DNA from: an uncultured delta proteobacterium
GTDB lineage: Bacteria; Desulfobacterota; Binatia; Binatales; Binataceae
NCBI GenBank assembly: GCA_963765675.1
Contig: CAVXXK010000004.1
Span: 160,001-224,000, forward strand
Direction of reading: 5' to 3'
DNA length: 64,000 nucleotides
Shown here: positions 31,250 through 51,741 of the stretch, piece by piece
Layout: each line of letters opens with the position of its first letter
Numbering within the stretch: the first letter of the stretch is position 1
The notes under the pieces: generated by a model
The model's database searches: none
What the model saw: only the letters and a program-made list of their open reading frames with translations
What the model was told of the DNA's origin: nothing
Made by a program: the position numbers and the translations under genes

Positions 31250-32458
31250 TCAATGATGTCCCGCGGCGCGGACCATCGTGGGCAGTCCGGCGGGAAATTC
31301 TATCCTCGGCTTACGCTTCATTGCTTTTTCGGAGAGCCGCGCGACCAGGGCCGCTTTCTCGCGCTTGCGCCGCGCGTCACGCTCTTTTATCTCGGGTAGC
31401 ACTTCGCGGCCGAACAACTCGATCGAGGAACTCAGCAATTCGTGCGGAATCCTGCCCGCCTGCGACAGGAACAGCACCTGGTCGACGCCGGAATCCTCGA
31501 AGCCTTGCAGCGCAGCGCGGATCTGATCGGGCGTGCCGACGCAGTTCTGCGCCTGCGATCCCGAAGCGAGCGGATCATCGATCACCGGCTTCACCGTCTG
31601 ATTCTTATAGCTCTGCCACAGGTTAGTCTTGCCCGGCTCGTGCTGTCCGAAAAACGCGTAGTGGCCGAGTCCATACATGAAAAAGCCGTGGTTCTCTTTA
31701 GCCATGCCGCGCACGAGGGTTTCATCGCGATCGCACAGGAATGGACACGCCATCGCGATGTTTGGATTGATCGCGTAACCGACGGGCTCGCATTCGTTCT
31801 CGATCGTCGCGTAATAGTCGTGCACCCATTGGCGCGATTCCTCCGGCGACACGAACGCGAAAGTCAACGCGCCGAGCCCGAGCCGCGCGGCAAGCAGGAT
31901 CGTCTCGCGCCGCGAGCACGCGAGCCACAAAGGGGGATGCGGTTTCTGCAGCGGCTTCGGCACTACATTGCGGACGGGGGCATTGACGAATTTTCCCTCG
32001 AAGCCCATGAACGGTTCTTCGACCAGCATCCGGGTAACGGTCTGCAGGCCTTCGAGCCACTGCGTGCGCTTGTCTTCCTGGGCGACGGTGAAGCCGCCGA
32101 GCTCGACCTCGCACGCACCTTCGCCGGTGCCGAAGTCGCATCGTCCGTCGCTGATAAGATCGAGCGTCGCGATTCGCTCGGCGACGCGCGCGGGATGATT
32201 GATGTACGGCGGCATCTGCACGATACCGTGCCCGATCCTGACGTTCCTGGTGCGGGCTGCGCACGCGGCGAGAAAAATCTCAGGCGCGGAAGAGTGCGCG
32301 TACTCCTCGAGAAAGTGATGCTCCGTCGCCCAGACGTAGTCGTATCCAATGCGGTCGGCGAGCTCGACCTGCTCGAGCGCCTGCTTGAACAGTTGATGCT
32401 CGGAGTCAGATGTCCACGGCCGCGGGAGCTGGAGTTCGTAGAAGGCGCCAATCTTCAT
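31250..32458 (-). CDS. LLM-class flavin-dependent oxidoreductase
   Basis: WATEHHF, HPARVAERIATLD, PKPLQKPHPP. Confidence 0.92.
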   Translation of the reverse strand: MKIGAFYELQLPRPWTSDSEHQLFKQALEQVELADRIGYDYVWATEHHFLEEYAHSSAPEIFLAACAARTRNVRIGHGIVQMPPYINHPARVAERIATLDLISDGRCDFGTGEGACEVELGGFTVAQEDKRTQWLEGLQTVTRMLVEEPFMGFEGKFVNAPVRNVVPKPLQKPHPPLWLACSRRETILLAARLGLGALTFAFVSPEESRQWVHDYYATIENECEPVGYAINPNIAMACPFLCDRDETLVRGMAKENHGFFMYGLGHYAFFGQHEPGKTNLWQSYKNQTVKPVIDDPLASGSQAQNCVGTPDQIRAALQGFEDSGVDQVLFLSQAGRIPHELLSSSIELFGREVLPEIKERDARRKREKAALVARLSEKAMKRKPRIEFPAGLPTMVRAAGHH

Positions 32459-32504
32459 CGCGGGTTCCTCATTCTTGTTTGCCGACTATGCGCACGAATC
32501 ACCC

Positions 32505-32927
32505 TCACTTGTCGAAGCCCTGTGCCTTGCGCAAGTTGTCGTTCAGGACGAGCCACGGCACTCTATCCGGCCAGAAAGCGTGCCGCTCGCTCTCGGCGGG
32601 ATGACCGGTGTTGGCGGCGGGATCGATACATGCGCGGCTGACCGCGATCAAATCGGGCAGCGCGTCGAGATTGATCGTTAGCGGCGAGCCGCAGTTCTTG
32701 CATCGGTTGCGATGCACCTTGTCCGAGCTGCTGAAGCTCTGAAGATCGCCGCCCTTGGTCCATCGGAAGCCGGCTTTCGGAAAAATCGAAAGTGTCACAA
32801 AGGCGGCGCCCTGCAGGCGGCGGCAAACCGAGCAGTGGCAATGATGGCTATCGACCGCCGGTTGCGTGATTGCGAATTGATTCGCCCCGCAGAAGCATGA
32901 GCCTTTTATCTCGTCAAATTTCGCCAT
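32505..32927 (-). CDS. GFA/CENP-V family zinc protein
   Basis: GSCFCG, CHCSVCR, CKNCGSPL; GGAGG RBS. Confidence 0.9.
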   Translation of the reverse strand: MAKFDEIKGSCFCGANQFAITQPAVDSHHCHCSVCRRLQGAAFVTLSIFPKAGFRWTKGGDLQSFSSSDKVHRNRCKNCGSPLTINLDALPDLIAVSRACIDPAANTGHPAESERHAFWPDRVPWLVLNDNLRKAQGFDK

Positions 32928-32955
32928 AGCCTTATCCTCCGATCGAGAAAATTGA

Positions 32956-33996
32956 TTAGCCGAGCCGGGCGCGAACAATTTTCGCACCTTCAACCATCGC
33001 TTTAAGTTTGCCGAACGCGACTTCCCGCGGCAGATACTTCATCCCGCAGTCGGGCGCGACCATCAGACGCTCAGCGGCGACGTGCTTCAGTGCGGCCTCG
33101 ATCCGCGCCGCTACGACATCAGGCGTCTCGATATTTTTGTCCCCGAGGTCGAGCACGCCCACGATCATCGTCTTGCTCGGAAGCTCGCGCAGGACCGCGA
33201 GGTCGAGCCGCGGCTGCGCGGTCTCGATCGACACCTGTTTCACGACACTGCCTTCGAGTTCCGCCAGGAATGAATAGCTCGACGGTTTCTGCGGAACCAC
33301 CGCCGCGTAGCCGAAACAAATGTGAATCGCGGTGGTGCCAGTGATTCCCTCGAGCGCGCGATTCACCATCTTGACGCCATACTGTTTTGCACGCTCGGGA
33401 AAACGCTGCATCCATGGCTCGTCGAGCTGCACAATATCGGCGCCCGCTGCGAACAGGTCTTTCACTTCTTCGTTGACTGCCGCGGCGAGTTCCATCGCCA
33501 GCGTCTCGCGATCGCGATGGTGGCGCGTCTCCGATTGCTCCGACATCGTGAACGGTCCCGGCAGTGTAATCTTGATTGTGCGATCGGTGTGCGCGCGCAG
33601 AAACGCGACATCGCGAACCTCAACCGGCGCAAGACGGCGCACGGGTCCGGAGAAAAGCGGCACCGCGACCGTAACCGTGCGGCCCGCGTTGACGAAAGTC
33701 AGCTTGCCTTCTTTCTCACGATCGAGTCCCGCCAGCGCGTTCGAAAATTTATTGGAATAGCTCTCGCGCCGAATCTCGCCATCACTGATGATATCGACGC
33801 CCGCGCGCTCCATGTCGCGGATCGCGACGATCGTGGCGTCGTCCTGCGCCTGCTCAAGCCATCGCTCGGGAATGCGCCATAATTCCGGAACGCGGATGCG
33901 CGGAACGAAGTGGCTCAGCTTCTCGCGATCGATGAGCCAGTCCGGTTGCGGATAGCTTCCGACCACCATCGTCGGCAGAAGCGTATGCGGTGTCAT
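32956..33996 (-). CDS. Cobalamin-independent methionine synthase II-like (short, single-barrel) protein
   Basis: VVGSYPQP, DGEIRRESY, QLDEP, zinc ligands HICFGY and APDCG. Confidence 0.88.
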   Translation of the reverse strand: MTPHTLLPTMVVGSYPQPDWLIDREKLSHFVPRIRVPELWRIPERWLEQAQDDATIVAIRDMERAGVDIISDGEIRRESYSNKFSNALAGLDREKEGKLTFVNAGRTVTVAVPLFSGPVRRLAPVEVRDVAFLRAHTDRTIKITLPGPFTMSEQSETRHHRDRETLAMELAAAVNEEVKDLFAAGADIVQLDEPWMQRFPERAKQYGVKMVNRALEGITGTTAIHICFGYAAVVPQKPSSYSFLAELEGSVVKQVSIETAQPRLDLAVLRELPSKTMIVGVLDLGDKNIETPDVVAARIEAALKHVAAERLMVAPDCGMKYLPREVAFGKLKAMVEGAKIVRARLG

Positions 33997-34026
33997 GGTC
34001 GCCTTTCCTGCCCGGCTGCCGTCGAT

Positions 34027-34944
34027 TCAGAGATTCGGGACCACATCGCGCGCCAGCAACTCCATATGCTCCACATGATCAAAAACTGGATCCAGCAAAA
34101 GACGCTGCGCACCGGCGCGCACCAGTTCCCGCAATTTGTCGATACATTCCGCACGGCTGCCGTAAATCGAGACGCGAGGAGCCATATCAGCATTGCGGTA
34201 GCGGGCGCCGAACCACTCTCGTAAGCGACGCTCCGCGCGCGCCCGATCATCATCGACCGCGATGTAAACTCGCTTTGAGACGGGGAAGGTCTTGGGATCG
34301 CGCCCGGCATCGTCCAGCAGGCGGCGCAGCCACTCAACGTGTTGGACGAATTCGGCCGACGACGATGATCCCGGCCCCATCCATCCGTCACCATGCCGGA
34401 CCGCGCGCTTCAGGCCGAGTTCGGTGCGAGCGCCAAACCAGATCGGAGGACGCGGCTTCTGCATCGGCTTGGGTTCCATCGCCACGTTTTCAAATTTCCA
34501 GAATTCTCCGCTCACCGAGGCCTTTGGCTCGGTCCATAACGCCTTCAGGACTTGCAGTCCTTCGACGAAACGGCGCGGTCGGCGCTCGCGGGGCACTCCG
34601 AAAATCTCGTGCGGCGTGGTCGGACCGCCGATACCAACGCCCAGAATCAGCCGTCCTTTGCTGAGTTGATCCAGCGTGGACAGAGTCTTGGCTAATTCCA
34701 CCGGGTTACGGATCACGGTCAGCAACACCGCTGAGCCGAGGCGAACTCGCGAAGTCAGCGCCGCAACGTAGGTCAAGAGCGTCACCGGCTCCAGCGCCGA
34801 AATCTCACCGATCATCTGCTCTTGAACCCACAAACTGTCGTATCCGAGCGCTTCGGCCCTGGGGGCGAATGCTCGAATGAGTTCGAGATTAACCGGAGTT
34901 TTGTCGAAGGTTTGCGGAATTGAGATGCCGCATGGAATCGTCAT
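34027..34944 (-). CDS. LLM-class (possibly F420-dependent) oxidoreductase
   Basis: AEALGYDSLWV, STLDQLSKGRLILGVG, PKPMQKPRPPIW. Confidence 0.9.
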   Translation of the reverse strand: MTIPCGISIPQTFDKTPVNLELIRAFAPRAEALGYDSLWVQEQMIGEISALEPVTLLTYVAALTSRVRLGSAVLLTVIRNPVELAKTLSTLDQLSKGRLILGVGIGGPTTPHEIFGVPRERRPRRFVEGLQVLKALWTEPKASVSGEFWKFENVAMEPKPMQKPRPPIWFGARTELGLKRAVRHGDGWMGPGSSSSAEFVQHVEWLRRLLDDAGRDPKTFPVSKRVYIAVDDDRARAERRLREWFGARYRNADMAPRVSIYGSRAECIDKLRELVRAGAQRLLLDPVFDHVEHMELLARDVVPNL

Positions 34945-34970
34945 TTGAATTCCTTTTCGAGTCGGCCCGA

Positions 34971-36578
34971 CTATGGATCAATCAGCACGCCTGGATTCAG
35001 GATGCCCCGCGGGTCGAGCGCCTTCTTTGCCGCGCGCAACGCATTCGCGAAACCGTCAGGCCGCTGGAGGTCGTACCACGGACGGTGATCGCGTCCGACC
35101 GCGTGATGATGCGTGATCGTGCCGCCGAGCTTTATCAATAGATCGGAGGCCGCCTGCTTGACGGCATCGCGCTGCTCCAGTTGTGAGTCTTTTTTCCCCG
35201 GCCCCAGGAATGTGTAGTACGGCGCAGGCCCGTCAGGATAAACGTGGGTGAAGCGGCAGGTCACGCTGCCCTTGCCGCAGATGCGCTTCATCGCGTCGCG
35301 CGCGCATTCGATCACCTGCAAGTGAAAATCCTCGAAGCGATCCCACGTGATCGAGGTCTCGAACGTGTCGCTCACCATCCCCATCGCCGCGACCGTGTCC
35401 ATAAGATACGGAGCGTTGAGAAACGCGTTGCGCCATGCGCCCGCGGCGCCTTCGTGCGTCGCCTCCTGATCGGTGCGCGTCTTGATTTCCTCTTTGGGAA
35501 TCTTGCCGCCGTGATCGGCGCAGCATTCGAGCGCTCGTTTCATCCACGGTTCGAGCGGATGGTCTCCGGATTCGAACGCCAGCACCATCACCGCCTCGTC
35601 GCCGTTGGCGGCGCCGGCGTTGAGCGCCTCGCCCTCATCAAGCACGCGGCAGTTCGCAGGAAACAATCCCGCCTGACCAATCTGCCGGACAGCCTTTGCG
35701 GCGGCAAAGAAACTCGGAAACGGCACCGACGCGCCGATCCGAAACTTCGGGCGATCCTGCAAGCGCATCCATGCCTCGGTGATGATGCCCAGGATTCCTT
35801 CCGAGCCGATGAACATGCGGTCGGGACTTGGCCCCGCGCCCGAGCCCGGCAGGCGCCGCGACTCGATGATGCCGGTCGGCGTGATGACACGGGTCGATTC
35901 GACGAAGTCATCTATGTGCGTGTAGTTGGTCGCGTAGTGTCCGCCCGAGCGCGTCGCGATCCATCCGCCTAGAGAAGAGAACTCGAATGACTGCGGATAA
36001 TGGCGCAGCGTGAGGCCGTGCGGCTTGAGCTGCGCTTCCAGATGAGGTCCGAGTACGCCGCCCTGGATACGTGCGGCGCGCGAAGCCTTATCGACTTCGA
36101 GCACACGATTCAGATGGGTCAGATCGATCGACACCGCGCCACGATAGTCGCCCTTGCTCGGAGCCTCGACGCCTCCGACTACAGACGATCCGCCGCCATA
36201 TGGCGATGCGGCGATCTTCGCGCCGTCGCACCATTCGAGGATCCTCACGATGTCCTTCTCATCGCGCGGAAACGCCACCACATCAATCGGGTTTGGATAG
36301 TATCGGCGAAACGCGCGGATAATATCGCGCGATCCTTTGCCGTAGCTATGGCCCGCGCGATCGTGTGTGCCGGTCGAGCAGATTTCTTTGAGCGAATCGG
36401 GAGGTTGCACCCGTGGAGCGCGAAGACTTAATTCCTTTTCGGTTGGAGGCGGCGTCAAGGTCAACTCGTCCAGGCCGAAGCGTTTCGCCATCCGCTCCGC
36501 CATATGCTTTTGCTGCTCGGGAGTGGGACCCTGGTCTTCGTAGCCCCATCCCCAGAATTTTCGTCGCCGTTCCGCCAT
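34971..36578 (-). CDS. FAD-binding oxidoreductase, alkyl-DHAP synthase-like
   Basis: PYGGGSSVVGG, HYPQSFEFSSLGGWIATRSGG, GSEGILG, THHHAVG. Confidence 0.88.
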   Translation of the reverse strand: MAERRRKFWGWGYEDQGPTPEQQKHMAERMAKRFGLDELTLTPPPTEKELSLRAPRVQPPDSLKEICSTGTHDRAGHSYGKGSRDIIRAFRRYYPNPIDVVAFPRDEKDIVRILEWCDGAKIAASPYGGGSSVVGGVEAPSKGDYRGAVSIDLTHLNRVLEVDKASRAARIQGGVLGPHLEAQLKPHGLTLRHYPQSFEFSSLGGWIATRSGGHYATNYTHIDDFVESTRVITPTGIIESRRLPGSGAGPSPDRMFIGSEGILGIITEAWMRLQDRPKFRIGASVPFPSFFAAAKAVRQIGQAGLFPANCRVLDEGEALNAGAANGDEAVMVLAFESGDHPLEPWMKRALECCADHGGKIPKEEIKTRTDQEATHEGAAGAWRNAFLNAPYLMDTVAAMGMVSDTFETSITWDRFEDFHLQVIECARDAMKRICGKGSVTCRFTHVYPDGPAPYYTFLGPGKKDSQLEQRDAVKQAASDLLIKLGGTITHHHAVGRDHRPWYDLQRPDGFANALRAAKKALDPRGILNPGVLIDP

Positions 36579-36641
36579 AGCCCGAGCTCCTTGTCCGAAT
36601 TACGCGCCCACGCGCCGGCGCCGGAGGTCCCTGTGGCTTCT

Positions 36642-37038
36642 TTACTCCGCGGAGACTCTCGCGAGCAATCGCGCTTCGATCACCGACGCCCCGACGCCAC
36701 ATGACGGCCGGGAGTTTCTTTCGCCGGCGCGCCTGGCGGTGACGCTGCCGCTGCCGCGGAACCAGGGAGCTTGCATCCACTTGGCGGGGCCGCATTTCGC
36801 CAACTCGTGCTCCTGGCAAATCAACTCGTCGGATGACGTGATGCGGCAGTTCCAGTCGCCGACATCGACGACGTGCAGGAACATCATCGTCATGTAACTC
36901 ATCGTTTCGCGCAGCGCGATCGTCTGCCCGCGCGCGACATCACAACCCAGCGCTGGCTGACGCGCCGAGAAAGATTCCGGCGTCGGATAGAATCGCCAGC
37001 GTCCCGATCAACCTGAGCAAGCGCGCACTACGCCTCAT
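36642..37038 (-). pseudogene. Possible secreted Cys-containing protein split by a +1 frameshift
   Basis: Signal-peptide-like MRRSARLLRLIGTLAILS from ATG 37038 stops early; the adjacent frame continues ALGCDVARGQTIALRETMSYM... to TAA at 36642. Confidence 0.4.
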
Positions 37039-37073
37039 GCGAGATTCTCGCGACCGAAGCTGCCAGTTTCTCC

Positions 37074-38036
37074 TCACGCTTTGAATAGTACGCTGATGCT
37101 CTCGCGGTTGTGGATACGCTTGATCGCCTCACCGAAAAGCGGCGCCACCGAAACAACCTCGACCTTCTTCGATAGCGCGACAGGCTGGGTTTCGATCGAA
37201 TCGGTCACTAGCAGACGCTTTATCGGACTGGCGTCGAGCCTTTCCATCGAGCCTTGGCTGAAGACCCCGTGAGAGACCGCGGCGTAGACGGCTTTCGCCC
37301 CGCGTTCGACGAGCTTCTCGGCCGCATCGACAAGCGTGCCCATCGAGATCGTGAAGTCATCGACCAGCAGCGCGGTCTTGCTTTCCACGTCGCCGATGAT
37401 CTCGAGGATCTCGGCGCGTTCATCGTGCGCCTTGCGTTCTTTGTCTGCGATAGCGATGGAGGTGCCCAGGAACGACGCAAACTTGCGCGCCTGCTTTGCG
37501 AAGCCGGTGTCGGGCGAGACCACGACGAGGTCCCGCAACTTCATGCGTTTGATTTCCTTGCCGAGTACCGGCAGCGCGTAGAGATCATCGACCGGAATAT
37601 GGAAGAAGCCCTGGATTTGCGGCGCGTGCAGGTCCAGCGTCACCACCCTATCCGCTCCGGCCACCGCGATCGCGTCAGCGCAGACTCGTGCTCGAATTGA
37701 AACCCGCGGTTCGTCCTTCTTGTCGCCCTTCGCGTAGCTGAAATAGGGCATCACAACAGTGACCGACTCGGCACTGGCGCGCCTGAACGCGTCGATCCAG
37801 AAAAGCAGTTCCATGAAATTATCGTTGGTGGGAAAGACCGTCGATTGAACCAGATAGACGTCGCGCCCGCGCACGTTTTCTTTGACCCGCACAAACAGGT
37901 TCCCGTCCGAGAAACGCAGCACTTCGCCGGCGCCCGGCCGCAGGTTCAAGTACTCACAAATCTTCTGGGTCAACTTGGGACTGCCGCTGCCGCCAAATAT
38001 GGCGATGTCGTTCGCCGAATCGGACTTCCGCTTCAT
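37074..38036 (-). CDS. prs: Ribose-phosphate pyrophosphokinase
   Basis: RFSDG, VRGRDV, MPYFSYA, DLHAPQIQGFF, VVSPDTG, LVDD. Confidence 0.95.
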   Translation of the reverse strand: MKRKSDSANDIAIFGGSGSPKLTQKICEYLNLRPGAGEVLRFSDGNLFVRVKENVRGRDVYLVQSTVFPTNDNFMELLFWIDAFRRASAESVTVVMPYFSYAKGDKKDEPRVSIRARVCADAIAVAGADRVVTLDLHAPQIQGFFHIPVDDLYALPVLGKEIKRMKLRDLVVVSPDTGFAKQARKFASFLGTSIAIADKERKAHDERAEILEIIGDVESKTALLVDDFTISMGTLVDAAEKLVERGAKAVYAAVSHGVFSQGSMERLDASPIKRLLVTDSIETQPVALSKKVEVVSVAPLFGEAIKRIHNRESISVLFKA

Positions 38037-38216
38037 CCCTCTCGATTAGCATGCGACAGGCAATTTCCACTACGCCCGAGTTCGAATGCGCGGGTGTGGA
38101 AAGCCCAATTCGATCGATACTGGATCAGTGGATGAAAGCGAGGACCGTGCGGCAGCCCGCGACGCGACGTTGATTCGCATCGGGCAGGTCTGCCGCATCC
38201 GAAGTGAAAGACTCTT

Positions 38217-38513
38217 CTAGTAGTTAGTGGTAGTGCTCGACGAATGCTCGCTCGAGTTGCCCATCGGCGCGCCGTTCGACGATGACGACGAATGTTCGGT
38301 AGTTGTGGTTGGAGCCTCGACAGCCGGCGCCACGACCACGGGAGCAGGTGCAACCACCACCGGCGCGGGATATGCCACGACGGCGGCCGGCGCCGAGGTT
38401 GTGGTTTCGCTCGTGCTCGTGGTGTCGGAACTGTCAGCGAATACGACGCCGACGCTTCCGAACAGCACCGCGATGCCCAAGGACAAAGCTGCAGTCTTCA
38501 AAGAGTGTTTCAC
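38217..38513 (-). CDS. Small secreted Ser/Thr/Pro/Val-rich low-complexity protein
   Basis: GGAG RBS, signal peptide ending VFA, PAPVVVA repeats. Confidence 0.75.
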   Translation of the reverse strand: MKHSLKTAALSLGIAVLFGSVGVVFADSSDTTSTSETTTSAPAAVVAYPAPVVVAPAPVVVAPAVEAPTTTTEHSSSSSNGAPMGNSSEHSSSTTTNY

Positions 38514-38750
38514 AATGATGTCTCCGTTAGTTCCTCATAAGAATCGTTCATCTTTAGAGTAAGAATGTATTCAGCTTCGCGGCAAGCACATCTCTGGGGC
38601 GATTGCGGTTTGAGTGCTCTGGGGCACCGCAATCGCGAGTAGATTGTCGACGTTATGAATCGGGAGACGGCGACTAGACGATCGCGTACGAGCGCGTCGA
38701 CAAGGCGACCTTATGCAGCCTTGACTTCTCGAGGCCGAAAACGCCCAGTC

Positions 38751-39521
38751 TTATGCGTCAACCAGGCCGAAGCGGACGCCGCCGATCATCACGATATCGT
38801 TCGCGACGAGGCTGCCGCGTTTCTTCGCGCTCGCGAGCAGACGCGGCCGATCGACGACGACCAAATCGATCCCGCCGAGGCCCTCGCCACGTCCGTCGGT
38901 TTCCTTGACGAAGCGGATCGTTCCGATATCGAGACGAATCGCGGGGTTGCCGTGCGTGTCGCGAGTGAGCGGCCGCTCCAGGATTTGAGCCCATCGCTCG
39001 GCCAGCGCCGCAGGCTCGGGTGATTGAATTTCGGCGGCCGCGATCGCGCGGACGACGTCGGTCCGCACTGCCGGCTTCCAGTTGCGTCCGGCCGGAGCCC
39101 ACGGGCCGTCAGGAGCTTCACCGCCCTTTTGATAGTCGATCTCCAGAAACGTACCGCCGGTGTCGCGCGGATGGAGCTGCATGATGCTGTACTCGGCGGA
39201 GTCATCCTCGAGCGCCTTGCGGATGCCGAGCTCGGCGGCACGGCGCTTGCGCGGTGCATGCTCGTCGCATTGCAGGATACACATGTAACCGCCGTCGCCG
39301 CGACGCCGTTCCAGGTAGCGGCCCCCGGCGGTGTTTTCCTTAATCGGAGCGACCACCTCGATAAACTGGCTGCCGACCGGGAGCAACGCGTTCTCGAGCC
39401 CGAAAACTTTGACGCCGGGGTCGCGATGCCCTACTTCGAGGCCGAACACCGCGTGCAAATCGTCAACCACCGGAGCCAACTTGTTCGCGACCAATGCCAA
39501 CTGGCGCATACGGAGCCACAT
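38751..39521 (-). CDS. VOC/glyoxalase-like protein
   Basis: LRMRQLALVA, DPGVKVFGLEN, QLHPRDTGG; GGAGGA RBS. Confidence 0.85.
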   Translation of the reverse strand: MWLRMRQLALVANKLAPVVDDLHAVFGLEVGHRDPGVKVFGLENALLPVGSQFIEVVAPIKENTAGGRYLERRRGDGGYMCILQCDEHAPRKRRAAELGIRKALEDDSAEYSIMQLHPRDTGGTFLEIDYQKGGEAPDGPWAPAGRNWKPAVRTDVVRAIAAAEIQSPEPAALAERWAQILERPLTRDTHGNPAIRLDIGTIRFVKETDGRGEGLGGIDLVVVDRPRLLASAKKRGSLVANDIVMIGGVRFGLVDA

Positions 39522-39538
39522 ATGAAATCCTCCTCCGG

Positions 39539-40342
39539 CTAACGGCCTTCGAATCGTGGTTTGCGCTTTTCGACCTTCGCGGCGAATGCCTCTTGCGTGT
39601 CGTGGGTGGCGAACATCGGTATGTGGCGCGCGGTTTCCAGGTCGATATAAGTTCTGAGATTCGTCCGCTCGGCTTCGACGAAGTTCGACTTCATCGTGCG
39701 CAACGCAATCGGCGCTGCCGCGGTCAGCCGCTCGACGATCGCGCTAATCTCCGCGCGAAAAGATTGGTCGGGAAACATGCGCGTGATCAGTCCAATCCGC
39801 AACGCTTCGGCGGCGTCGAATTTTCCCGGCATGAAATACAATTCGCGGGCGCGCGCCGCGCCTACGATCCGCGGCAATGTCCATGGACCGCCCATGTCGC
39901 CCGCCACGCCCACGTCGAGGAACGCGACATTGAACCGAGCCGACTCGGCGGCAAAGCGAAAGTCGCATGCGCACGCCCATCCGAACGCCGCGCCGGCGCA
40001 CGCACCGTTGATCGCCGCGATCGTGACAGCGGGCATCTCATGCAGGAGCGTCGAGACGTGATAGTCGCGCGGCCCGGAACCGTCGCCGTCCGAATTCTGC
40101 GCGCGATTCTCGCCGGACGACACGACGACGTTTAGATCCGCGCCGGGGCAGAAAGCCTTGCCCGCGCCCGTCAGCACCAGCACGCGGATCTCAGTATCGT
40201 CGGCGGCGCGGGTCAGCGCCTCGCGCGCTTCATGCACCATCAGGCCGGTCATGCCGTTCATCCGCTCGGGACGATTCATCGTCAGCGTGGCGAGCGGTCC
40301 GGTCTTCTCGAACAGAATTGTCTTGAAGTGCGGGTCGCTCAT
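39539..40342 (-). CDS. Enoyl-CoA hydratase/isomerase family protein
   Basis: TMNRPERMN, AFCPGADL, AAINGACAGA, KRKPRFEGR. Confidence 0.92.
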   Translation of the reverse strand: MSDPHFKTILFEKTGPLATLTMNRPERMNGMTGLMVHEAREALTRAADDTEIRVLVLTGAGKAFCPGADLNVVVSSGENRAQNSDGDGSGPRDYHVSTLLHEMPAVTIAAINGACAGAAFGWACACDFRFAAESARFNVAFLDVGVAGDMGGPWTLPRIVGAARARELYFMPGKFDAAEALRIGLITRMFPDQSFRAEISAIVERLTAAAPIALRTMKSNFVEAERTNLRTYIDLETARHIPMFATHDTQEAFAAKVEKRKPRFEGR

Positions 40343-41151
40343 ATTTCTTCTCCTTTCAATCGCGCGAAGCGCGGCGGCCGCCGCTCGACGAACGATTTCA
40401 CGCCCTCGGTCGCATCCGGATGCGCCAGCGACTCGTGCGTCAGGCGATCCGCGTCGCGAATTGCCGGCTCGAGCGCGAGCGACGAATGGCGATAAATCTG
40501 CGACTTCATCACCGCGATTGAACGGGGCGATACATTCGCCGCGAGGTCGCGGATGTAGGCCTTTGCGTCGTCGAGAAGCTTTTCGTTGGGCACCACGCGA
40601 TCGACGAAACCGATTCGGAGCGCCTCGGCCGCGTCGATTCGGCGCGCACTCCAGAGCAGATCGAGCGCACGGTTGAGCCCGACCAGCCGCGGCAGAATCC
40701 AACTCGTGCCGTGCTCCGCGATCAGCCCGCGCTTCGAGAATGCGGTTGTGAAGCTCGCGCCGGCGGCCGCGAAACGCAAGTCGCACATCATCGCAAGCAC
40801 AAAGCCGCCGCCCGCGGCAACGCCATTGACCGCGGCGATAACAGGTTTCGGAATTCGCAGCAGATGGCTGAACAGCGCAGGCAATTCGTCCTCCGAAACG
40901 TTGGCAGCAGGTTCGGCTTCCCGCGCCGTGCCCGACGCCGAGCGCGTCAGATCGCCGGTATCGAGGCCTGCGCAAAACGCACGGCCCGCTCCCGTCACAA
41001 CGATGCCGACGACGCGCTCGTCGGCAGCCGCCATGTCGGCTGCCTTGCGGATTTCGGCGATCATCTCGAAGGTGAACGCGTTGAGCTTCTCCGGCCGGCC
41101 CAATCGGATCAGACCGACGGAGTCTTCCACCTGGTAATCCACGTTCGTCAT
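40339..41151 (-). CDS. Enoyl-CoA hydratase/isomerase family protein
   Basis: RPEKLNA, AFCAGLD, KPVIAAVNGVAAGGG, AEHGTSWILPRLVG. Confidence 0.93.
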   Translation of the reverse strand: MTNVDYQVEDSVGLIRLGRPEKLNAFTFEMIAEIRKAADMAAADERVVGIVVTGAGRAFCAGLDTGDLTRSASGTAREAEPAANVSEDELPALFSHLLRIPKPVIAAVNGVAAGGGFVLAMMCDLRFAAAGASFTTAFSKRGLIAEHGTSWILPRLVGLNRALDLLWSARRIDAAEALRIGFVDRVVPNEKLLDDAKAYIRDLAANVSPRSIAVMKSQIYRHSSLALEPAIRDADRLTHESLAHPDATEGVKSFVERRPPRFARLKGEEI

Positions 41152-41184
41152 CGCGCTAGCATACCTCGCCCACCCGCGAGAGCG

Positions 41185-42186
41185 TCAACTCGAAAGGGCA
41201 GGCAGCACTTCGCGTGCGAAGCGCTCGAGCGAGCGCATCGCCTTCTCCGGCGCGAGGCCCGGTAGCTGTGTGATCAGGATGATCTCCGTCGCACCGCTGG
41301 TCGAAATCACCTCGGCAAGACGATCCTTCACGATCTCTGGCGGTCCGATGATGCTGCTCTGCTTGAGCTGATTCGCGTCGGGCTGGATCCATCGCTGGCC
41401 GGGATTCGCGGCCGAAAGCCATTTTCCATAGAGCGCCGCCTGATACATCGCGGCCGGCTCGATATCCGCCCACGCCCGCTCGGCGCTGTCGGCGACGTAA
41501 ACGATACGACTGTTGACGATGCTAAAGGCGTCGGGGTCTTTGCCGAGGCTGCGCAGCTCCTCGCGATAGATCTCGACCTGATGACGTCCGAGGTTGCAGG
41601 CAAATGACAAACCGAGCCGCGCGCCGCGCTGGATCGCCGTGGTGGTCATCCCGCCCCACAGCAGCTCCGGATGCGGCTGGCTTTTGGGGCGCGGCAGCAC
41701 ACGCACGTCGTGAAACTGAAAGTGCTGGCCCTCAAAGCTGAAACGTTCACCGGTCCACGCGCGGCGCATGATCTCGATCGTTTCGAGCGTGCGGCTGAGC
41801 CGATGCTTTTTCGAGACTTGCAAACCGTCGAATTCTTCGTCGCGGTAGCCCATCCCGATTCCCAGGCGCAGGCGGCCGTTGGAGATGACGTCGATCATTG
41901 CGGCGTCCTCGGCCAACCGCAGTGGATGATAAAACGGCGCGAGCAAAACATAGGTGCCGAGCGCGATCCGCGTGGTGCGCGCCGCGATCGCCGCGAGCAT
42001 CGGCATCACCGAGGACAGGTAGCCGTCATCGACGAAGTGATGCTCGGTGACCCACAGCGACTCGAAGCCGGCTTTTTCGAGAAACTCGATCTGCCGGAAC
42101 ATCGCGGAATAGAAGGTCCCGAAATCCATATGCGACGATTCAGGATTCCGGAAGTCGAGCATGTAACCAAATTTCATCTTCGGCAT
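41185..42186 (-). CDS. LLM-class flavin-dependent oxidoreductase
   Basis: WVTEHHFVDDGY, HPLRLAED, GRLRLGIGMGY. Confidence 0.92.
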   Translation of the reverse strand: MPKMKFGYMLDFRNPESSHMDFGTFYSAMFRQIEFLEKAGFESLWVTEHHFVDDGYLSSVMPMLAAIAARTTRIALGTYVLLAPFYHPLRLAEDAAMIDVISNGRLRLGIGMGYRDEEFDGLQVSKKHRLSRTLETIEIMRRAWTGERFSFEGQHFQFHDVRVLPRPKSQPHPELLWGGMTTTAIQRGARLGLSFACNLGRHQVEIYREELRSLGKDPDAFSIVNSRIVYVADSAERAWADIEPAAMYQAALYGKWLSAANPGQRWIQPDANQLKQSSIIGPPEIVKDRLAEVISTSGATEIILITQLPGLAPEKAMRSLERFAREVLPALSS

Positions 42187-48135: not shown

Positions 48136-49248
48136 CTACGCGGTGATTCTTTCTACCACCTGGGCGATTCGGCTGCGCTTGCGGCTATGATTCAGGCCAG
48201 CCGCTTCCAGGCGCTCCAGATATTCGTGCGAGACCAGGCGCATAAATTTGGCCGCGGCTTCCCGGCCAGCTTTAACCTGATGTTGCTCCAAGCCGCCGCC
48301 GGAAATTATGATCAATGGCTCAAGCAGCTCGGGGCTGCCCAAAAGCGCGAGCATCACATGCTCGCTCTCATCGACATATTCCTGCATCGCGGAGTGCTCG
48401 CCCGGGCGATGCTTCAGAAAGTAGCGTAGCTGTCCCGAGCCATAGGCGGTCTGGCGCGCGGTATCCTGCATCGCATAGCCCATCAGCGCGCGATCGGTCT
48501 TGCTCGGTGCGAACGCGGCCACGTGGCGGCAGATCGCGAGTACTATCCCGCCAAGCGACAGGTTAATCGAGAGCGAGCCCTTCGGATACGAGTCGGCCCA
48601 CAGCCATTCCTTCAGGCCTTGCTCGCCCGAGACGCTGGCGCGTCCGAGTCCGCCGCCACCGTAGAGCGCGCGCTTGCGGAACGCCTCGTTGAGGCGCGCC
48701 CAATTGAACATCTGCGCGCACATCCAGCTTTTCTGCTCGATGAAATCCTGATTGACCAGCGGAACCCATCGCGACGCGAAATCCATGGAGACCAGCGAGC
48801 ACTCCTGCAGGAAAGTGCAGAGCTGAGCGACCGCGGCCTCGAGCGGCGGATGCAGCGGATTCTTTTCGAGCAGGCTCCATGGAACGTCCACGGCCGGCGT
48901 CCAGCGGCGCGCCTTGTCTTCCTCGTACAGCTCGGTGACGTTGTCGGACCAGACGTCGGACTTGCGGTTGACGACATAGCCCATGTCGGGCAGGTTGCCC
49001 CACTTCTCACTGCCGCGCGCGACCATCGATTGGCTGGTGCGCACGTTCTCGGGGATGTCGGTGTAGCCGTAGCTGCCGAGATCGAGATCCTGGTAGGTCA
49101 GGCCGCGGCGAGGATCGGAGGGCTTGCCTTTGACTTTTTCGGTTTTCGCGTCATACCAGAACAGCGTCAAATTTCCCGCCATCACCTGGTTGGCGGCTTC
49201 GAGCACCGTCTCATCGACCGTGTAGTCCTTGTCGGCGTAAAATGCCAC
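48136..49248 (-). CDS. Ferritin-like protein lacking diiron ligands (putative structural beta subunit)
   Basis: Collinear paralog of 49260..50402, but DEARH becomes NWARL, AEG becomes LGG and the second DEARH becomes DTARQ. Confidence 0.85.
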   Translation of the reverse strand: MAFYADKDYTVDETVLEAANQVMAGNLTLFWYDAKTEKVKGKPSDPRRGLTYQDLDLGSYGYTDIPENVRTSQSMVARGSEKWGNLPDMGYVVNRKSDVWSDNVTELYEEDKARRWTPAVDVPWSLLEKNPLHPPLEAAVAQLCTFLQECSLVSMDFASRWVPLVNQDFIEQKSWMCAQMFNWARLNEAFRKRALYGGGGLGRASVSGEQGLKEWLWADSYPKGSLSINLSLGGIVLAICRHVAAFAPSKTDRALMGYAMQDTARQTAYGSGQLRYFLKHRPGEHSAMQEYVDESEHVMLALLGSPELLEPLIIISGGGLEQHQVKAGREAAAKFMRLVSHEYLERLEAAGLNHSRKRSRIAQVVERITA

Positions 49249-49259
49249 GTGGATAAACC

Positions 49260-50402
49260 TCAGAGCTTGATTCCGGCCGCTTCGGCCGCTGCCCTGCCCA
49301 TTTCATACATCTGGAAAAGCTTCGAGCGTCCCTTGCGTTCCGGCATTCCGCATTTATCCAGCCGCTCGAAATGCTCTTCCATCTGCTTCAGATTGAACTT
49401 GGTGGTGATCTTGATGCCTTCCTCGATGTTCTCTCTCTTGAGCCCGCCACCCGCCAGGATGATGAACGACTCGGTCAGCTCGGTCGCGGCCGAGCCGGCG
49501 AACGAGATGTTCTCGGCTTCATCGAGATGCGCATGCAGCACCTCGCGCTTTTCGGGAAAGTTCTCGAGAACGTATTTGAAATGCTGCATTCCGTAACCGA
49601 CGTGACGCGCTTCATCCTGCATCACAAGGCGGAAGATGCGCTTGTCCACGTCGGTCGGCGACAGATACTCGCTGAAGCGGAACAGCGTCAGCACGTTGCC
49701 CTCGGCCACCAGGTGCAGCGCCACCGACATCTCGCTGAACGAGTCGGCGTCGCGCAGATGCTTCAGCGCCATCTCGTTGACGGGGCTCGCCTTCATGAGG
49801 CCCCATCCTGTCGTCAGCGCACGCTTGCGAAACGCCTCGGTGTGGCGCGCTTCGTCCGACGCCTGCGTGGCGATAAACGCCTTGACCTCGATAAAATCCG
49901 GATTGAGCCGCGGCAGCCACATCGCCGGCGTATCGGTCGCGATCATCTCGACTTCGGTCAGGAAGGTCATGAGCTGCGAGAGCGCCTTGCCGATCGTTTC
50001 CGGCAGCTCGACGCCGTCGAGTCGCTCCCATGGGATGTCCGTGGTGACGTTCCATTGGCGGCTGACCGCTTCTTCGTAATAGCTTTCGGTGTTGAAGGCC
50101 CAGACCTCGCTCTTGCGCGAGACCCACGGCTGCGCGTCAGGAACGCCTGCCGGAATCTCCGCACCGCGCGGAGCGTAGGAGCGGTTACCGCGGACCTTTT
50201 CGGGCACATCGGTAAAGCCGTAGCTGCCGAGGTCGATGTCACGATAGGTCAGTCCCCGGCGCGGGTTGGCTTCATGTGGCTTGATCTTTTCGGTCGCGGC
50301 CTTCATCCAGGACAGATCCATCTCTCCGGTGCGGATCGTGTAGAGCCACTTGTCGATGAAGTCCTTGTCTTCGAGATAATTGGTGGTTGAAAGATAAGCC
50401 AT
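49260..50402 (-). CDS. Ferritin-like carboxylate-bridged diiron protein (putative catalytic alpha subunit)
   Basis: Canonical E...ExxH...E...ExxH pattern: TEVE, DEARH, AEG, DEARH; GGAGG RBS. Confidence 0.9.
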   Translation of the reverse strand: MAYLSTTNYLEDKDFIDKWLYTIRTGEMDLSWMKAATEKIKPHEANPRRGLTYRDIDLGSYGFTDVPEKVRGNRSYAPRGAEIPAGVPDAQPWVSRKSEVWAFNTESYYEEAVSRQWNVTTDIPWERLDGVELPETIGKALSQLMTFLTEVEMIATDTPAMWLPRLNPDFIEVKAFIATQASDEARHTEAFRKRALTTGWGLMKASPVNEMALKHLRDADSFSEMSVALHLVAEGNVLTLFRFSEYLSPTDVDKRIFRLVMQDEARHVGYGMQHFKYVLENFPEKREVLHAHLDEAENISFAGSAATELTESFIILAGGGLKRENIEEGIKITTKFNLKQMEEHFERLDKCGMPERKGRSKLFQMYEMGRAAAEAAGIKL

Positions 50403-50441
50403 GTTAACCGCGCCTCCGGGCAGGGTTTGCGACTTTGACGC

Positions 50442-50882
50442 TCAATTGAAGCTGACTTCGACCTGACTCGAGAGGTCGAAAAATTTCTGGATCGACTCCA
50501 TGAAACGGTAGAGCTTGTCGTGCCCGTCGGGGTCGTCATAGACGATCTTCAACTGCTCGCCGAAATGCGCGAGCGTGTTCAGATCGTGCGAAGAGTCGGC
50601 CTCGCCGTGGCGATGGATATTCTCGATCATCTCGCGCCAGATTTTGGCGTCGCCTTCGATCATGAAATCGACCTTCTTCAGATCGATCGCGTCAACCTCA
50701 TGCACATTCTTGAGATCGAAGACCTCGAACTCGAGCACGAAGTTGCGCGCCTTCCCGTTTTGTCCAACGCGAACGCCGAAGGTGGTGTCGATAAAGCCGA
50801 GGCGGCGAAACTTTTCCTGCTGCGCCGTCATCTTGCCCTTAAGGGCCTCGAAATAGTCGGTCGAAGGAAAGCTGATTGGCAT
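50442..50882 (-). CDS. SCP2 sterol/lipid-binding-like protein
   Basis: Begins FPSTDYFEAL and contains VDFMIEGDAKIWREMI, an SCP2-like pattern; ATG 50882 preferred over TTG 50942. Confidence 0.6.
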   Translation of the reverse strand: MPISFPSTDYFEALKGKMTAQQEKFRRLGFIDTTFGVRVGQNGKARNFVLEFEVFDLKNVHEVDAIDLKKVDFMIEGDAKIWREMIENIHRHGEADSSHDLNTLAHFGEQLKIVYDDPDGHDKLYRFMESIQKFFDLSSQVEVSFN

Positions 50883-50929
50883 TTGGATAGTCGTCCCTAC
50901 GGTATTGCGGCGAGAATTATCTGTCACCG

Positions 50930-50993
50930 ATGTTACGGTCAAAGAAGCGATAGTTGCAAGCTCGCCGCGAGCTACCGATTAAACGGTCGGTAG
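50930..50993 (-). promoter_or_regulatory. Putative sigma70 promoter plus upstream TetR operator for the diiron operon
   Basis: Minus strand TTGCAA-N18-TAACAT; palindrome CTACCGA-TTAAACGG-TCGGTAG at 50972..50993. Confidence 0.5.
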
Positions 50994-51042
50994 GTTTTGC
51001 CGTGCGTTTCTGGCGAGTTGTGATGCCCATTTTTGGCGATGC

Positions 51043-51741
51043 TCACTTCTGCTTTCGCGACGCGGTTTTCGCGGGCTCGCTGAGGGTGCGGCCGAGCGAC
51101 TCGATCACGCGCAGAATCTCGTCTACACGGTCGAAATCGCCGATACTCTTTTCAAGCGCCATCGAGCCAAAAATAAAAAAGATCGTCCATGAGATCAGCT
51201 CGAAGCGCTGGCGCATTTCGGGCGCGGGCTTGAAGATCTGCTGAAGCGCGCGATGCAGGTAGTCGTTGGTGCGCTTGTTGAGCGCGCTGACCGACTTGTG
51301 CAGCGCAGGGTCGGTGCGGGCGGCGACCGCGAGCTCGAGCCAGGCGAAAAACAGCGGACCGTTCCATGCCTCCCAGAACGCCGCCATAGCCGCGGTCCAC
51401 AGGTCCGCGCCCTTGGGCAGGCCCGCGACGGTCTGCTGGAACTCGGCGATGCGCAGCTCGATCAGGTACTCGACCGCGCTGGTCAGAAGCGCATCCTTCT
51501 TCGGGAAATGATAAAGCTGCGAGCCGCGCGAAAGGCCCGCGCGACTGGCGATTTCGAGCGTGGTGGTATTCGAGTAGCCGCGATCGATCAGGCATGACAG
51601 GGCCGCGTCGAGCACGCGGCGGCGCGACTCGGCGGCTTTCTCTGCCTGGGTCAAGCGCTGTTCCGGACGCGCGCGGTATTTGAAGCGCGGAGGGTCGGCG
51701 CCAAGTTCAGATGTCGGCCGCGCGGAAACTCTGGAAGCCAT
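51043..51741 (-). CDS. TetR-family transcriptional regulator
   Basis: VLDAALSCLIDRGYSNTTTLEIASRAGLSRGSQLYHFPKK; ELAVAARTD. Confidence 0.93.
   Translation of the reverse strand: MASRVSARPTSELGADPPRFKYRARPEQRLTQAEKAAESRRRVLDAALSCLIDRGYSNTTTLEIASRAGLSRGSQLYHFPKKDALLTSAVEYLIELRIAEFQQTVAGLPKGADLWTAAMAAFWEAWNGPLFFAWLELAVAARTDPALHKSVSALNKRTNDYLHRALQQIFKPAPEMRQRFELISWTIFFIFGSMALEKSIGDFDRVDEILRVIESLGRTLSEPAKTASRKQK

Follow-up and report, generated by a model that had tools for sequence, protein, structure and literature searches.

A minus-strand gene cluster of an uncultured Binataceae soil bacterium encodes a ferritin-like protein with a complete dimetal site (alpha), a paralog of this protein that lacks every one of the six metal ligands (beta), and a small protein with a sterol carrier protein 2 (SCP2) fold. 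The cluster lies in a 64,000-nucleotide stretch of contig CAVXXK010000004.1 (assembly GCA_963765675.1, positions 160,001 to 224,000), here called the window, and its source genome is 4.5 Mb in size and 95.6% complete. In the open reading frame (ORF) list of the window, the genes follow each other in the order TetR, small SCP2-fold gene, alpha, and beta. According to our preferred interpretation, which we hold to be reasonably probable and in which we infer the metal, the chemistry, and the substrate, alpha and beta together perform an O2-dependent oxidation of a long-chain lipid, and the SCP2-like protein delivers this substrate.

The four genes, the paralogy of two of them, and their ligand pattern had been described in an original prediction made from the letters of the window, and all of these observations were confirmed at their positions. 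No published description of the family was found in the literature searched, a body that lies outside subscription journals and supplementary files.

Metal site, fold, and family placement of alpha

The motif DEARH occurs twice in alpha, together with two lone glutamates. An alignment of 43 diverse alpha-like proteins, which are 25-92% identical to the window alpha, contains ten invariant columns (E152, E172, E184, R186, H187, E234, D263, E264, R266, and H267). Because the corresponding columns are unchanged in all 43 proteins, we assign the metal site to E152 / E184xxH187 / E234 / E264xxH267. All six ligands are also kept in 81/81 alpha sequences from Binatia. The full diiron set that the original prediction had ascribed to alpha thus proved complete and invariant, with the correction that, judged by the 43 alpha-likes, the first ligand is E152 and not E150. 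The median ratio of nonsynonymous to synonymous substitutions (dN/dS) of alpha is 0.038 over 45 pairs, calculated by the Nei-Gojobori method for the window and its nine closest loci (alpha and beta) or eight closest loci (small gene).

The AlphaFold2 (AF2) model of alpha (predicted local distance difference test, pLDDT, 93.2; predicted template modeling score, pTM, 0.90) has a four-helix-bundle core that carries the E...ExxH...E...ExxH pattern. Alpha is thereby a ferritin-like protein with the long-helix bundle typical of ribonucleotide reductase (RNR) R2 subunits and bacterial multicomponent monooxygenases (BMMs).

No Pfam or NCBIfam model attains its cut-off on alpha, beta, or the small protein. 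For alpha, the scores remain below the limit for DUF455 (PF04305; 21.4 bits, gathering cut-off 34.3), Ribonuc_red_sm (PF00268; 16 bits, cut-off 33.6), and the R2lox model NF006200 (29.9 bits, cut-off 194), which is its sole NCBIfam match, and AurF (PF11583) gives no match to the window alpha at E<=1. Among the 43 alpha-likes, weak Pfam matches were obtained for DUF455 (16/43), AurF (12/43, best E 3.5e-6), and Ribonuc_red_sm (12/43). Phenol_Hydrox (PF02332), PaaA_PaaC (PF05138), and FA_desaturase_2 yielded no match at E<=0.01 in these proteins and 36 beta-likes. The original prediction had not recognized the sequences as members of known families, and this judgment held for the Phenol_Hydrox, PaaA_PaaC, FA_desaturase_2, AurF, and R2lox models alike. 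In the ESM Atlas, the neighbor clusters of alpha carry the name AurF on 12-50% of their members.

Solved relatives were ranked by sequence, profile, and fold. Searching the Protein Data Bank (PDB) sequences with alpha alone returned a VlmB homologue as the best match (E 0.067); the alpha profile retrieved the VlmB homologue at E 1.1e-12 and R2lox at ~5e-8, with soluble methane monooxygenase (sMMO) and phenol hydroxylase at 0.38-0.54. Foldseek, run with the alpha model, placed the VlmB-type enzymes (8wvr, 6d9f) first (E ~1e-4, best value 8e-5; TM 0.52/0.61), followed by R2c, R2lox, and sMMO. A VIA-align comparison of the model with 48,161 representative chains was likewise led by the VlmB homologue 6d9f (Z 22.9; root-mean-square deviation, rmsd, 2.8 over 257 residues), ahead of R2lox (4hr0, Z 21.9), sMMO alpha (1fyz_A, Z 21.6), an entry of the aldehyde-deformylating oxygenase (ADO) type (5ux2, Z 21.3, rmsd 2.2 over 209 residues), and phenol hydroxylase beta (2inn_C, Z 21.1). 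Lower values were found for PaaC (3pvr_B, Z 16.2), BoxB (3per, Z 15.8), acyl-ACP desaturase (1oq4, Z 15.5), AurF (2jcd, Z 14.5), and several ferritins and Dps proteins (Z about 11, with the core bundle alone covered). The top VIA-align ranks amount to a tie, and the sequence-profile order is clearer. Since the profile E-values fall in that order, we place alpha on the R2lox/VlmB side of the superfamily, as a member of neither group; even the closest solved relative, the VlmB homologue, is just 18% identical to alpha.

R2lox (4hr0, 3ee4/4ac8) shares with alpha the R2-type ferritin fold and the E/ExxH/E/ExxH site, and the profile homology extends from the N-terminal 'W..LYE.A...W...DI' region through the ligand helices. 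In PMC9314684, R2lox is described as carrying a Tyr-Val ether cross-link and as co-purifying with C16-C18 fatty acids, haloarchaeal R2lox is reported to be clustered with sterol-carrier-protein and ferredoxin genes, and the function of R2lox itself is given as still unknown. Alpha might accordingly be imagined as an R2lox-like 'ligand-binding oxidase' that modifies itself or turns over once on a tightly bound lipid, with the pair serving as a lipid-binding or sensing module. This possibility, which we judge rather unlikely, draws on the second rank of R2lox by profile and its tie on fold, on the NCBIfam match, and on a window locus that encodes no electron donor. However, the score of that match is far from its cut-off, and the cross-link tyrosine, located five residues before the third ligand glutamate ('TVYNMIVEG'), aligns with a leucine in alpha (L229, in one hidden Markov model (HMM) alignment). 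Furthermore, solved R2lox entries contain one kind of chain, whereas alpha has an additional N-terminal extension of ~100 residues, a paralogous partner devoid of the ligands, and an SCP2-like gene specific to the family, and a possible electron carrier is present in other lineages.

The top rank of the VlmB homologue by profile and by Foldseek, the weak AurF matches among the alpha-likes, and the AurF names in the Atlas clusters would fit an N-oxygenase or azoxy-type tailoring enzyme (VlmB, AurF, or AzoC-like) that acts on an amine or hydrazine intermediate and not on a lipid. We consider such a role quite unlikely in view of the low identity to VlmB, the missing AurF match of the window alpha itself, and the genomic context: no biosynthetic-cluster genes were seen around any scanned locus, and azoxy-pathway neighbors were not seen near alpha. 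As far as the accessible part of PMC11705231 describes it, VlmB works with VlmO in azoxy natural-product pathways, and neither a dead paralog nor an SCP2 partner is described there.

Very unlikely, in our estimate, is an iron-storage or peroxide-detoxifying protein of the ferritin, Dps, or rubrerythrin type, or an RNR R2 pair. The ferritin-like fold, the weak Ribonuc_red_sm matches, and iron-dependent repressor genes upstream of three distant alpha/beta loci (L108, L111, and L116) speak for it. On the other side, the ferritin and Dps matches stay at the core bundle and at about half the Z of 21-23 reached by R2/BMM-type proteins, the Ribonuc_red_sm score of alpha lies below its cut-off, no RNR large-subunit domain is encoded in any neighborhood scanned, and an SCP2 partner fits neither a ferritin nor an RNR role.

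The ligand-less paralog beta, a predicted partner of alpha

Alpha and beta are paralogs separated by 11 nucleotides, as the original prediction had stated. The BLASTP alignment contains 136/367 identical positions (37%, E 7e-89) and one gap, and the motifs PRRGLTYxDxDLGSYG, RKSxVW, YEE, DxPW, EAFRKRAL, and IIxxGGGL all lie within it. The replacements that had been noted in beta (NWARL, LGG, and DTARQ) stand where alpha has its ligands. More specifically, the window beta reads S, W, L, G, T, and Q at the six ligand sites; it lacks all six ligands because a serine also occupies the column of the first ligand, E152. Across 74 beta sequences, the ligands E234 (0/74) and E264 (0/74) are never kept, and E184 (4/74), H187 (6/74), H267 (4/74), and E152 (7/74) are kept in a few. 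The second-shell residues R186, D263, and R266 are each retained in 74/74. A Pfam scan of the 36 beta-likes returned no relevant family.

Loss of all ligands and an evolutionary rate about three times that of alpha are what would be expected of a functionless, decaying duplicate whose pairing with alpha is an accident of tandem duplication. This explanation was already disfavored, and we regard it as extremely unlikely. The median dN/dS of beta is 0.121 over 45 pairs, an intact full-length ORF is present in 73/80 Binatia loci, and 53 columns are invariant among the 36 beta-likes. Furthermore, a ligand-less partner follows alpha in 36/51 distant loci, and the predicted alpha/beta interface is strong. 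Beta is under purifying selection and not in decay, as the original prediction had argued. Its remark on normal codon usage also proved correct: the GC content at third codon positions is 0.75-0.80 in all four genes, within the 0.58-0.84 of the neighboring genes.

The heteromer that had been proposed was recovered by complex prediction, run on our own alignments, as a large alpha/beta heterodimer, with ipSAE values of 0.93/0.94/0.93 and 0.00 for the best of three controls; the ipSAE mark used is attained by 58/80 solved complexes and 2/110 mismatched pairs. Contact agreement between runs is at least 92%, and the pLDDT of the partner is at least 91. The predicted interface comprises ~440 contacts, to which each chain contributes its first 90 residues and its ligand-bearing helices. 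This model supports binding of alpha to beta.

To place beta within the family, a tree was calculated from 44/81 rows, subsampled for run time with 37 rows dropped; the rows kept are six Binatia alpha/beta pairs, 18 distant alphas, and 14 distant betas. In this unrooted tree (IQ-TREE 'quick' search, LG+C20+F+G4, support from the Shimodaira-Hasegawa-like approximate likelihood-ratio test (SH-aLRT) only), Binatia alpha is joined with Binatia beta (support 99), and the sister of both is an SCP2-linked solo alpha (locus L165, support 98). The distant betas all fall into one separate clan (support 100). Enforcing a single clade of all ligand-less proteins costs 44.9 log-likelihood units and is rejected in the approximately unbiased (AU) test (p-AU 0.0024), for which the ligand-less group was named after a FastTree tree had been inspected. 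Taken at face value, the tree suggests at least two origins of the dead partner within the family, and gene conversion between alpha and beta in a Binatia ancestor would look alike. The tree derives beta from a duplication inside the family, in agreement with the predicted origin independent of the beta subunits of BMM and Paa systems.

The arrangement itself has precedents. BMM hydroxylases (sMMO MmoX/MmoY, phenol hydroxylase, and toluene monooxygenases) follow the same logic of a catalytic diiron alpha and a same-fold, ligand-less beta in a pseudo-symmetric assembly, and both of their chains match the alpha model (Z 20-21.6), covering part of its N-terminal extension. They differ from the present system in chain length (~510 residues in solved entries, 380 in alpha) and in their further components, as genes for a gamma subunit, a coupling protein, a Rieske ferredoxin, and a reductase are missing from the window locus. 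PaaA/PaaC likewise combines an active alpha, a metal-free paralog, and a small extra subunit, and acts on coenzyme A (CoA) thioesters; genes for CoA-transferase, hydratase, and thiolase are found repeatedly in the vicinity of family members outside Binatia, a likeness shared with PaaA/PaaC and BoxB. In contrast, the fold matches to PaaC and BoxB are weaker, a PaaE-type reductase is absent, and the small subunit here has the SCP2 fold.

The SCP2-fold protein and the distribution of the family

The AF2 model of the small protein (pLDDT 84.6, pTM 0.82, residues 97-102 poorly defined) shows the alpha/beta architecture of SCP2 proteins, with a five-stranded sheet and a helical lid. Foldseek matched it to Thermus TT1886 (1wfr, TM 0.68/0.69, E 7.7e-7) and 2cx7 (TM 0.65/0.73), as well as to human, insect, and yeast SCP2 and to the SCP2 domain of UbiJ (6h6n, E 6e-4). 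There are 23 matches with E <= 0.001, mostly SCP2 entries. One of its neighbor clusters in the Atlas bears the name 'SCP2 domain-containing protein' (0.95). By sequence, no Pfam family including SCP2 (PF02036) was matched at E<=1, the PDB gave no meaningful match, and an iterated SCP2 HMM found no additional loci. Since Foldseek matches SCP2 and PF02036 does not, the term 'SCP2-like' used in the original prediction holds for the fold and not for the Pfam model; the protein is also not universal across the wider family. The median dN/dS of the small gene is 0.075 (29/36 pairs, those with dS between 0.05 and 1.5).

Our survey of Binatia covers every genome locus in which alpha was found (80 in total). 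In 73/80 of these loci, alpha is followed by a full-length beta (identity of at least 45%, length of at least 85%), and the small gene precedes alpha in 74/80, which bears out the predicted conservation of the small-alpha-beta trio. Most missing parts are accounted for by contig ends (L039, L042, and L051) or partial matches (L023, L024, L057, L059, and L068), and in L079 beta is not adjacent to alpha. In L078, alpha and beta lie ~2 kb apart, with an AAA_21 (AbiEii/OLD-like ATPase) and DUF4276 gene pair between them (L078:9354-11155); this insert looks like a small defense-type cassette that landed in the operon. In the most distant Binatia loci, identity to the window proteins is 68-73% for alpha, 49-52% for beta, and 45-52% for the small protein.

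Within the class sample, 121/301 genomes gave a match at E <= 1e-40, a count that also includes beta and a separate 45-48% subfamily, as well as four genomes flagged as unpublished (G590, G585, G470, and G562), which enter into no other result given here. The gene itself, at 62% identity or more, is present in roughly 80 of the 301 genomes, as read from the match list. Phylum-wide, 8/401 sampled genomes match, every one of them inside the class. A housekeeping role was rejected on account of this patchy distribution, which indicates that the system is accessory. Many Binataceae genomes contain a further family member at a separate locus (e.g., G256:C6:25403-26398 and G168:C61:4089-5075), which is 45-48% identical to alpha and ~20 N-terminal residues shorter; the genome of the window has none.

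Beyond Binatia, an exhaustive search with clustering at 50% identity returned 828 clusters at E <= 0.001, 399 at E <= 1e-10, and 98 at E <= 1e-30. Named members come from metagenome-assembled genomes of Acidimicrobiia, Dehalococcoidia (Chloroflexota), and Actinomycetota, and their source annotations read 'hypothetical' or 'ferritin-like domain-containing protein', with one cluster called 'TusA-related'. An N-terminal TusA-like domain is predicted in 9/43 of the distant alpha-likes (P0151, P0154, and P0160 among them), and FrhB_FdhB domains, which resemble F420 hydrogenase beta, are predicted in one member. The sole longer relative of alpha, P0454 (751 aa), was rejected as a fusion: it is alpha-like just in its C-terminal ~240 residues, and since the remainder is rich in Arg, Pro, and Ala, it is most likely a mis-called frame.

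A metagenome scan with an alignment led by a Dehalococcoidia-type member yielded 80 loci, in all of which the ligand set of the first ferritin-like gene is complete. A second paralog stands directly after alpha in 36/51 loci with at least 1300 nt downstream, and 0/37 second paralogs have the full set, the patterns including ALHDRM, ACHGHH, AAHGKH, and GAKKSH. An SCP2-like gene, often two in tandem, follows 12/27 pairs with at least 2200 nt downstream. Five alphas are solo, each flanked on either side by 2.5 kb or more. The gene order also differs, being alpha-beta-SCP2 in the distant lineages and SCP2-alpha-beta in Binatia.

In 7/9 of the non-Binatia trio loci scanned, the cluster ends with a Zn_ribbon_8 gene of 92-110 aa (Table 1), whose product combines CxxC...CxxC with a conserved C-terminal tail, LDPxYxxMVD...PF. 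This protein is a candidate rubredoxin-like electron carrier, and it may alternatively act as a docking peptide. A Zn_ribbon_8 gene also lies 1.6 kb downstream of the solo alpha of L127. Lipid and acyl-CoA genes are found near family members outside Binatia, namely CoA-transferase III (L131, L156, L160, and L162), enoyl-CoA hydratase (L136, L156, L162, and L164), and thiolase (L130 and L139) genes, and L104 is accompanied by ketoacyl synthase, thioesterase, and lipid-A-type acyltransferase genes.

A second link between the family and an SCP2 protein, independent of the first, is seen at L099:248-5163, where the genes after a solo alpha encode an oxidoreductase that binds FAD/NAD, an SCP2 protein of the canonical PF02036 type, and a flavoprotein resembling amine oxidases and phytoene desaturases. 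Three related alpha/beta-only loci have a DtxR/IdeR-type iron-dependent repressor gene (FeoA domain) just upstream (L108:375-1316, L111:6244-7002, and L116:6176-6886), and L111 and L116 a PadR regulator as well, which hints at iron-responsive control in this lineage.

Gene layout, regulation, and the proposed system

The positions of the cluster genes in the window and of the Zn_ribbon_8 genes in other loci are collected in Table 1. The intergenic gaps measure 160 nt between TetR and the small gene, 39 nt between the small gene and alpha, and 11 nt between alpha and beta (49249-49259). The ORF of the small gene is open up to a TTG at 50942; we placed its start at 50882 because the orthologues are 145-147 aa long and begin with MPISFPS. 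A promoter and terminator scan gave no signal exceeding the shuffled expectation.

Table 1. Positions of the cluster features in the window and of the Zn_ribbon_8 genes in trio loci outside Binatia (locus:positions).
Feature	Position	Strand	Description
Beta	48136..49248	-	370-aa alpha paralog without any of the six metal ligands; predicted non-catalytic partner
Alpha	49260..50402	-	380-aa ferritin-like (R2/BMM-type fold) subunit with complete dimetal site
SCP2-fold protein	50442..50882	-	146 aa; AF2 model and Foldseek
Candidate TetR operator palindrome	50972..50993	.	Pattern count and conservation across loci
TetR-family regulator	51043..51741	-	232 aa; TetR_N match
Zn_ribbon_8 gene	L139:10995-11273
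Zn_ribbon_8 gene	L144:11056-11385
Zn_ribbon_8 gene	L148:11064-11339
Zn_ribbon_8 gene	L151:4285-4584
Zn_ribbon_8 gene	L159:4946-5242
Zn_ribbon_8 gene	L160:10312-10605
Zn_ribbon_8 gene	L134:6806-7084

The regulator belongs to the TetR family (TetR_N, 50.7 bits, cut-off 24). The original prediction had counted it as part of the system, a claim that failed, as a directly upstream orthologue occurs in just 6/80 Binatia loci (L001, L002, L003, L005, L006, and L013). TetR is a lineage-specific addition confined to the closest relatives. About 90 nt before the start of the SCP2-like gene, the sequence CTACCGA-N8-TCGGTAG forms a perfect palindrome, which occurs once in the window, where 0.01 copies are expected. 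The five closest loci that contain TetR keep it at an unchanged distance with up to two mismatches, and it is degraded (4-6 mismatches) in three TetR-less loci and in L013, whose TetR is 65% identical. This pattern makes the palindrome a putative TetR operator.

No reductase, ferredoxin, or coupling-protein Pfam domain was found among the genes at 29.7 to 63.9 kb of the window. The absence of an electron-transfer partner, as originally predicted, thus holds for the window locus (~18 kb on each side) and does not extend to other lineages, which add the four-cysteine Zn-ribbon gene. Elsewhere in the window, positions 31250-42186 hold three luciferase-like monooxygenase genes (31250-32458, 34027-34944, and 41185-42186) together with GFA (glutathione-dependent formaldehyde-activating), Meth_synt_2, FAD-linked oxidase, and enoyl-CoA hydratase genes. 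This region could represent an island of oxidative catabolism that has no relation to the trio.

In the system that we propose, catalysis would fall to alpha, a member of an undescribed family of ferritin-like oxidases that would activate O2 at a dimetal center (Fe/Fe or Mn/Fe), and beta would be a site-less paralog kept as an obligate structural partner. Both would form a pseudo-symmetric heterodimer built through their N-terminal extensions and ligand-bearing helices. The likeliest task of the SCP2-fold protein is to bind a substrate that resembles a long-chain lipid (such as a fatty acyl group, an aldehyde, or an acyl-CoA) and to pass it to the heterodimer. Electrons would be supplied by a donor encoded outside the window locus, and elsewhere the dedicated four-cysteine Zn-ribbon protein may serve. 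In this sublineage, a TetR repressor bound to the palindrome upstream of the SCP2 gene probably turns the operon on in response to the substrate or a related lipid. We infer metal binding, O2 chemistry, the lipid substrate, the SCP2 role, the electron donor, and TetR control from these comparisons.

The clues to the substrate are the SCP2 fold, lipid-handling relatives, lipid genes at other loci, and the TetR with its palindrome, none of which is decisive. By analogy, the nearest characterized relatives point to long aliphatic chains, which they handle, and the PDB entries 6d9f and 5ux2 are titled as aldehyde-deformylating. COQ7-COQ9 and UbiJ follow a similar concept, with an accessory protein that binds lipids and makes a hydrophobic substrate available to a hydroxylase. 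The resemblance does not go beyond analogy: COQ7 showed no sequence relation to the family in any search made, and COQ9 is not an SCP2 protein.

Several observations weigh against the proposed system or its lipid substrate. Lineages with alpha and beta only, or with a solo alpha, lack the SCP2-like gene, so the family can do without it. The idea that the SCP2-like protein has a conserved metal site was considered and rejected, as its three invariant histidines are specific to Binatia and not kept elsewhere. Ferredoxin, rubredoxin, and reductase genes are missing within ~18 kb on either side of the trio, and of the four Zn_ribbon_8 genes above the Pfam cut-off in the genome of the window, 0/4 are near the trio and 0/4 have the cluster-type tail. 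The lipid-gene context is known from other lineages and not from the Binatia trio, whose conserved neighbors (DsbA-like, ABC-exporter, and ROK genes) say little about the substrate; a GFO/IDH/MocA oxidoreductase gene after beta in L074 and L080 is equally uninformative. Finally, the strong dimer prediction may partly mirror likeness to solved structures, as R2-type homodimers and BMM alpha/beta pairs are already among them.

A more far-reaching version of the proposal is tentative. Alpha, a dead paralog that evolved at least twice, an SCP2 delivery subunit, and a lineage-dependent, rubredoxin-like Zn-ribbon electron carrier could constitute a new multicomponent class of lipid-oxidizing dimetal enzymes apart from BMM and PaaABCE, with an ADO-like or hydroxylating reaction on long-chain lipids. 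Members of this class may occur in widespread uncultured soil and marine bacteria.

The architecture represents the known theme of an active and a dead ferritin-like subunit in an unnamed and fairly large family, for which Pfam, NCBIfam, and the source annotations give no functional name. The oxidations catalyzed by ferritin-like dimetal oxidases, including those of methane, arenes, and alkanes as well as N-oxidation, are among the hardest known in biology, and to our knowledge each newly characterized family of them has so far brought new chemistry. Because the family travels with a lipid carrier, and because here the inducer of TetR could reveal the substrate, the oxidized substrate is directly testable. 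Furthermore, the pairing of an active with a dead subunit, which has apparently evolved repeatedly, makes the family a natural case for studying the origins of pseudoenzyme partners.

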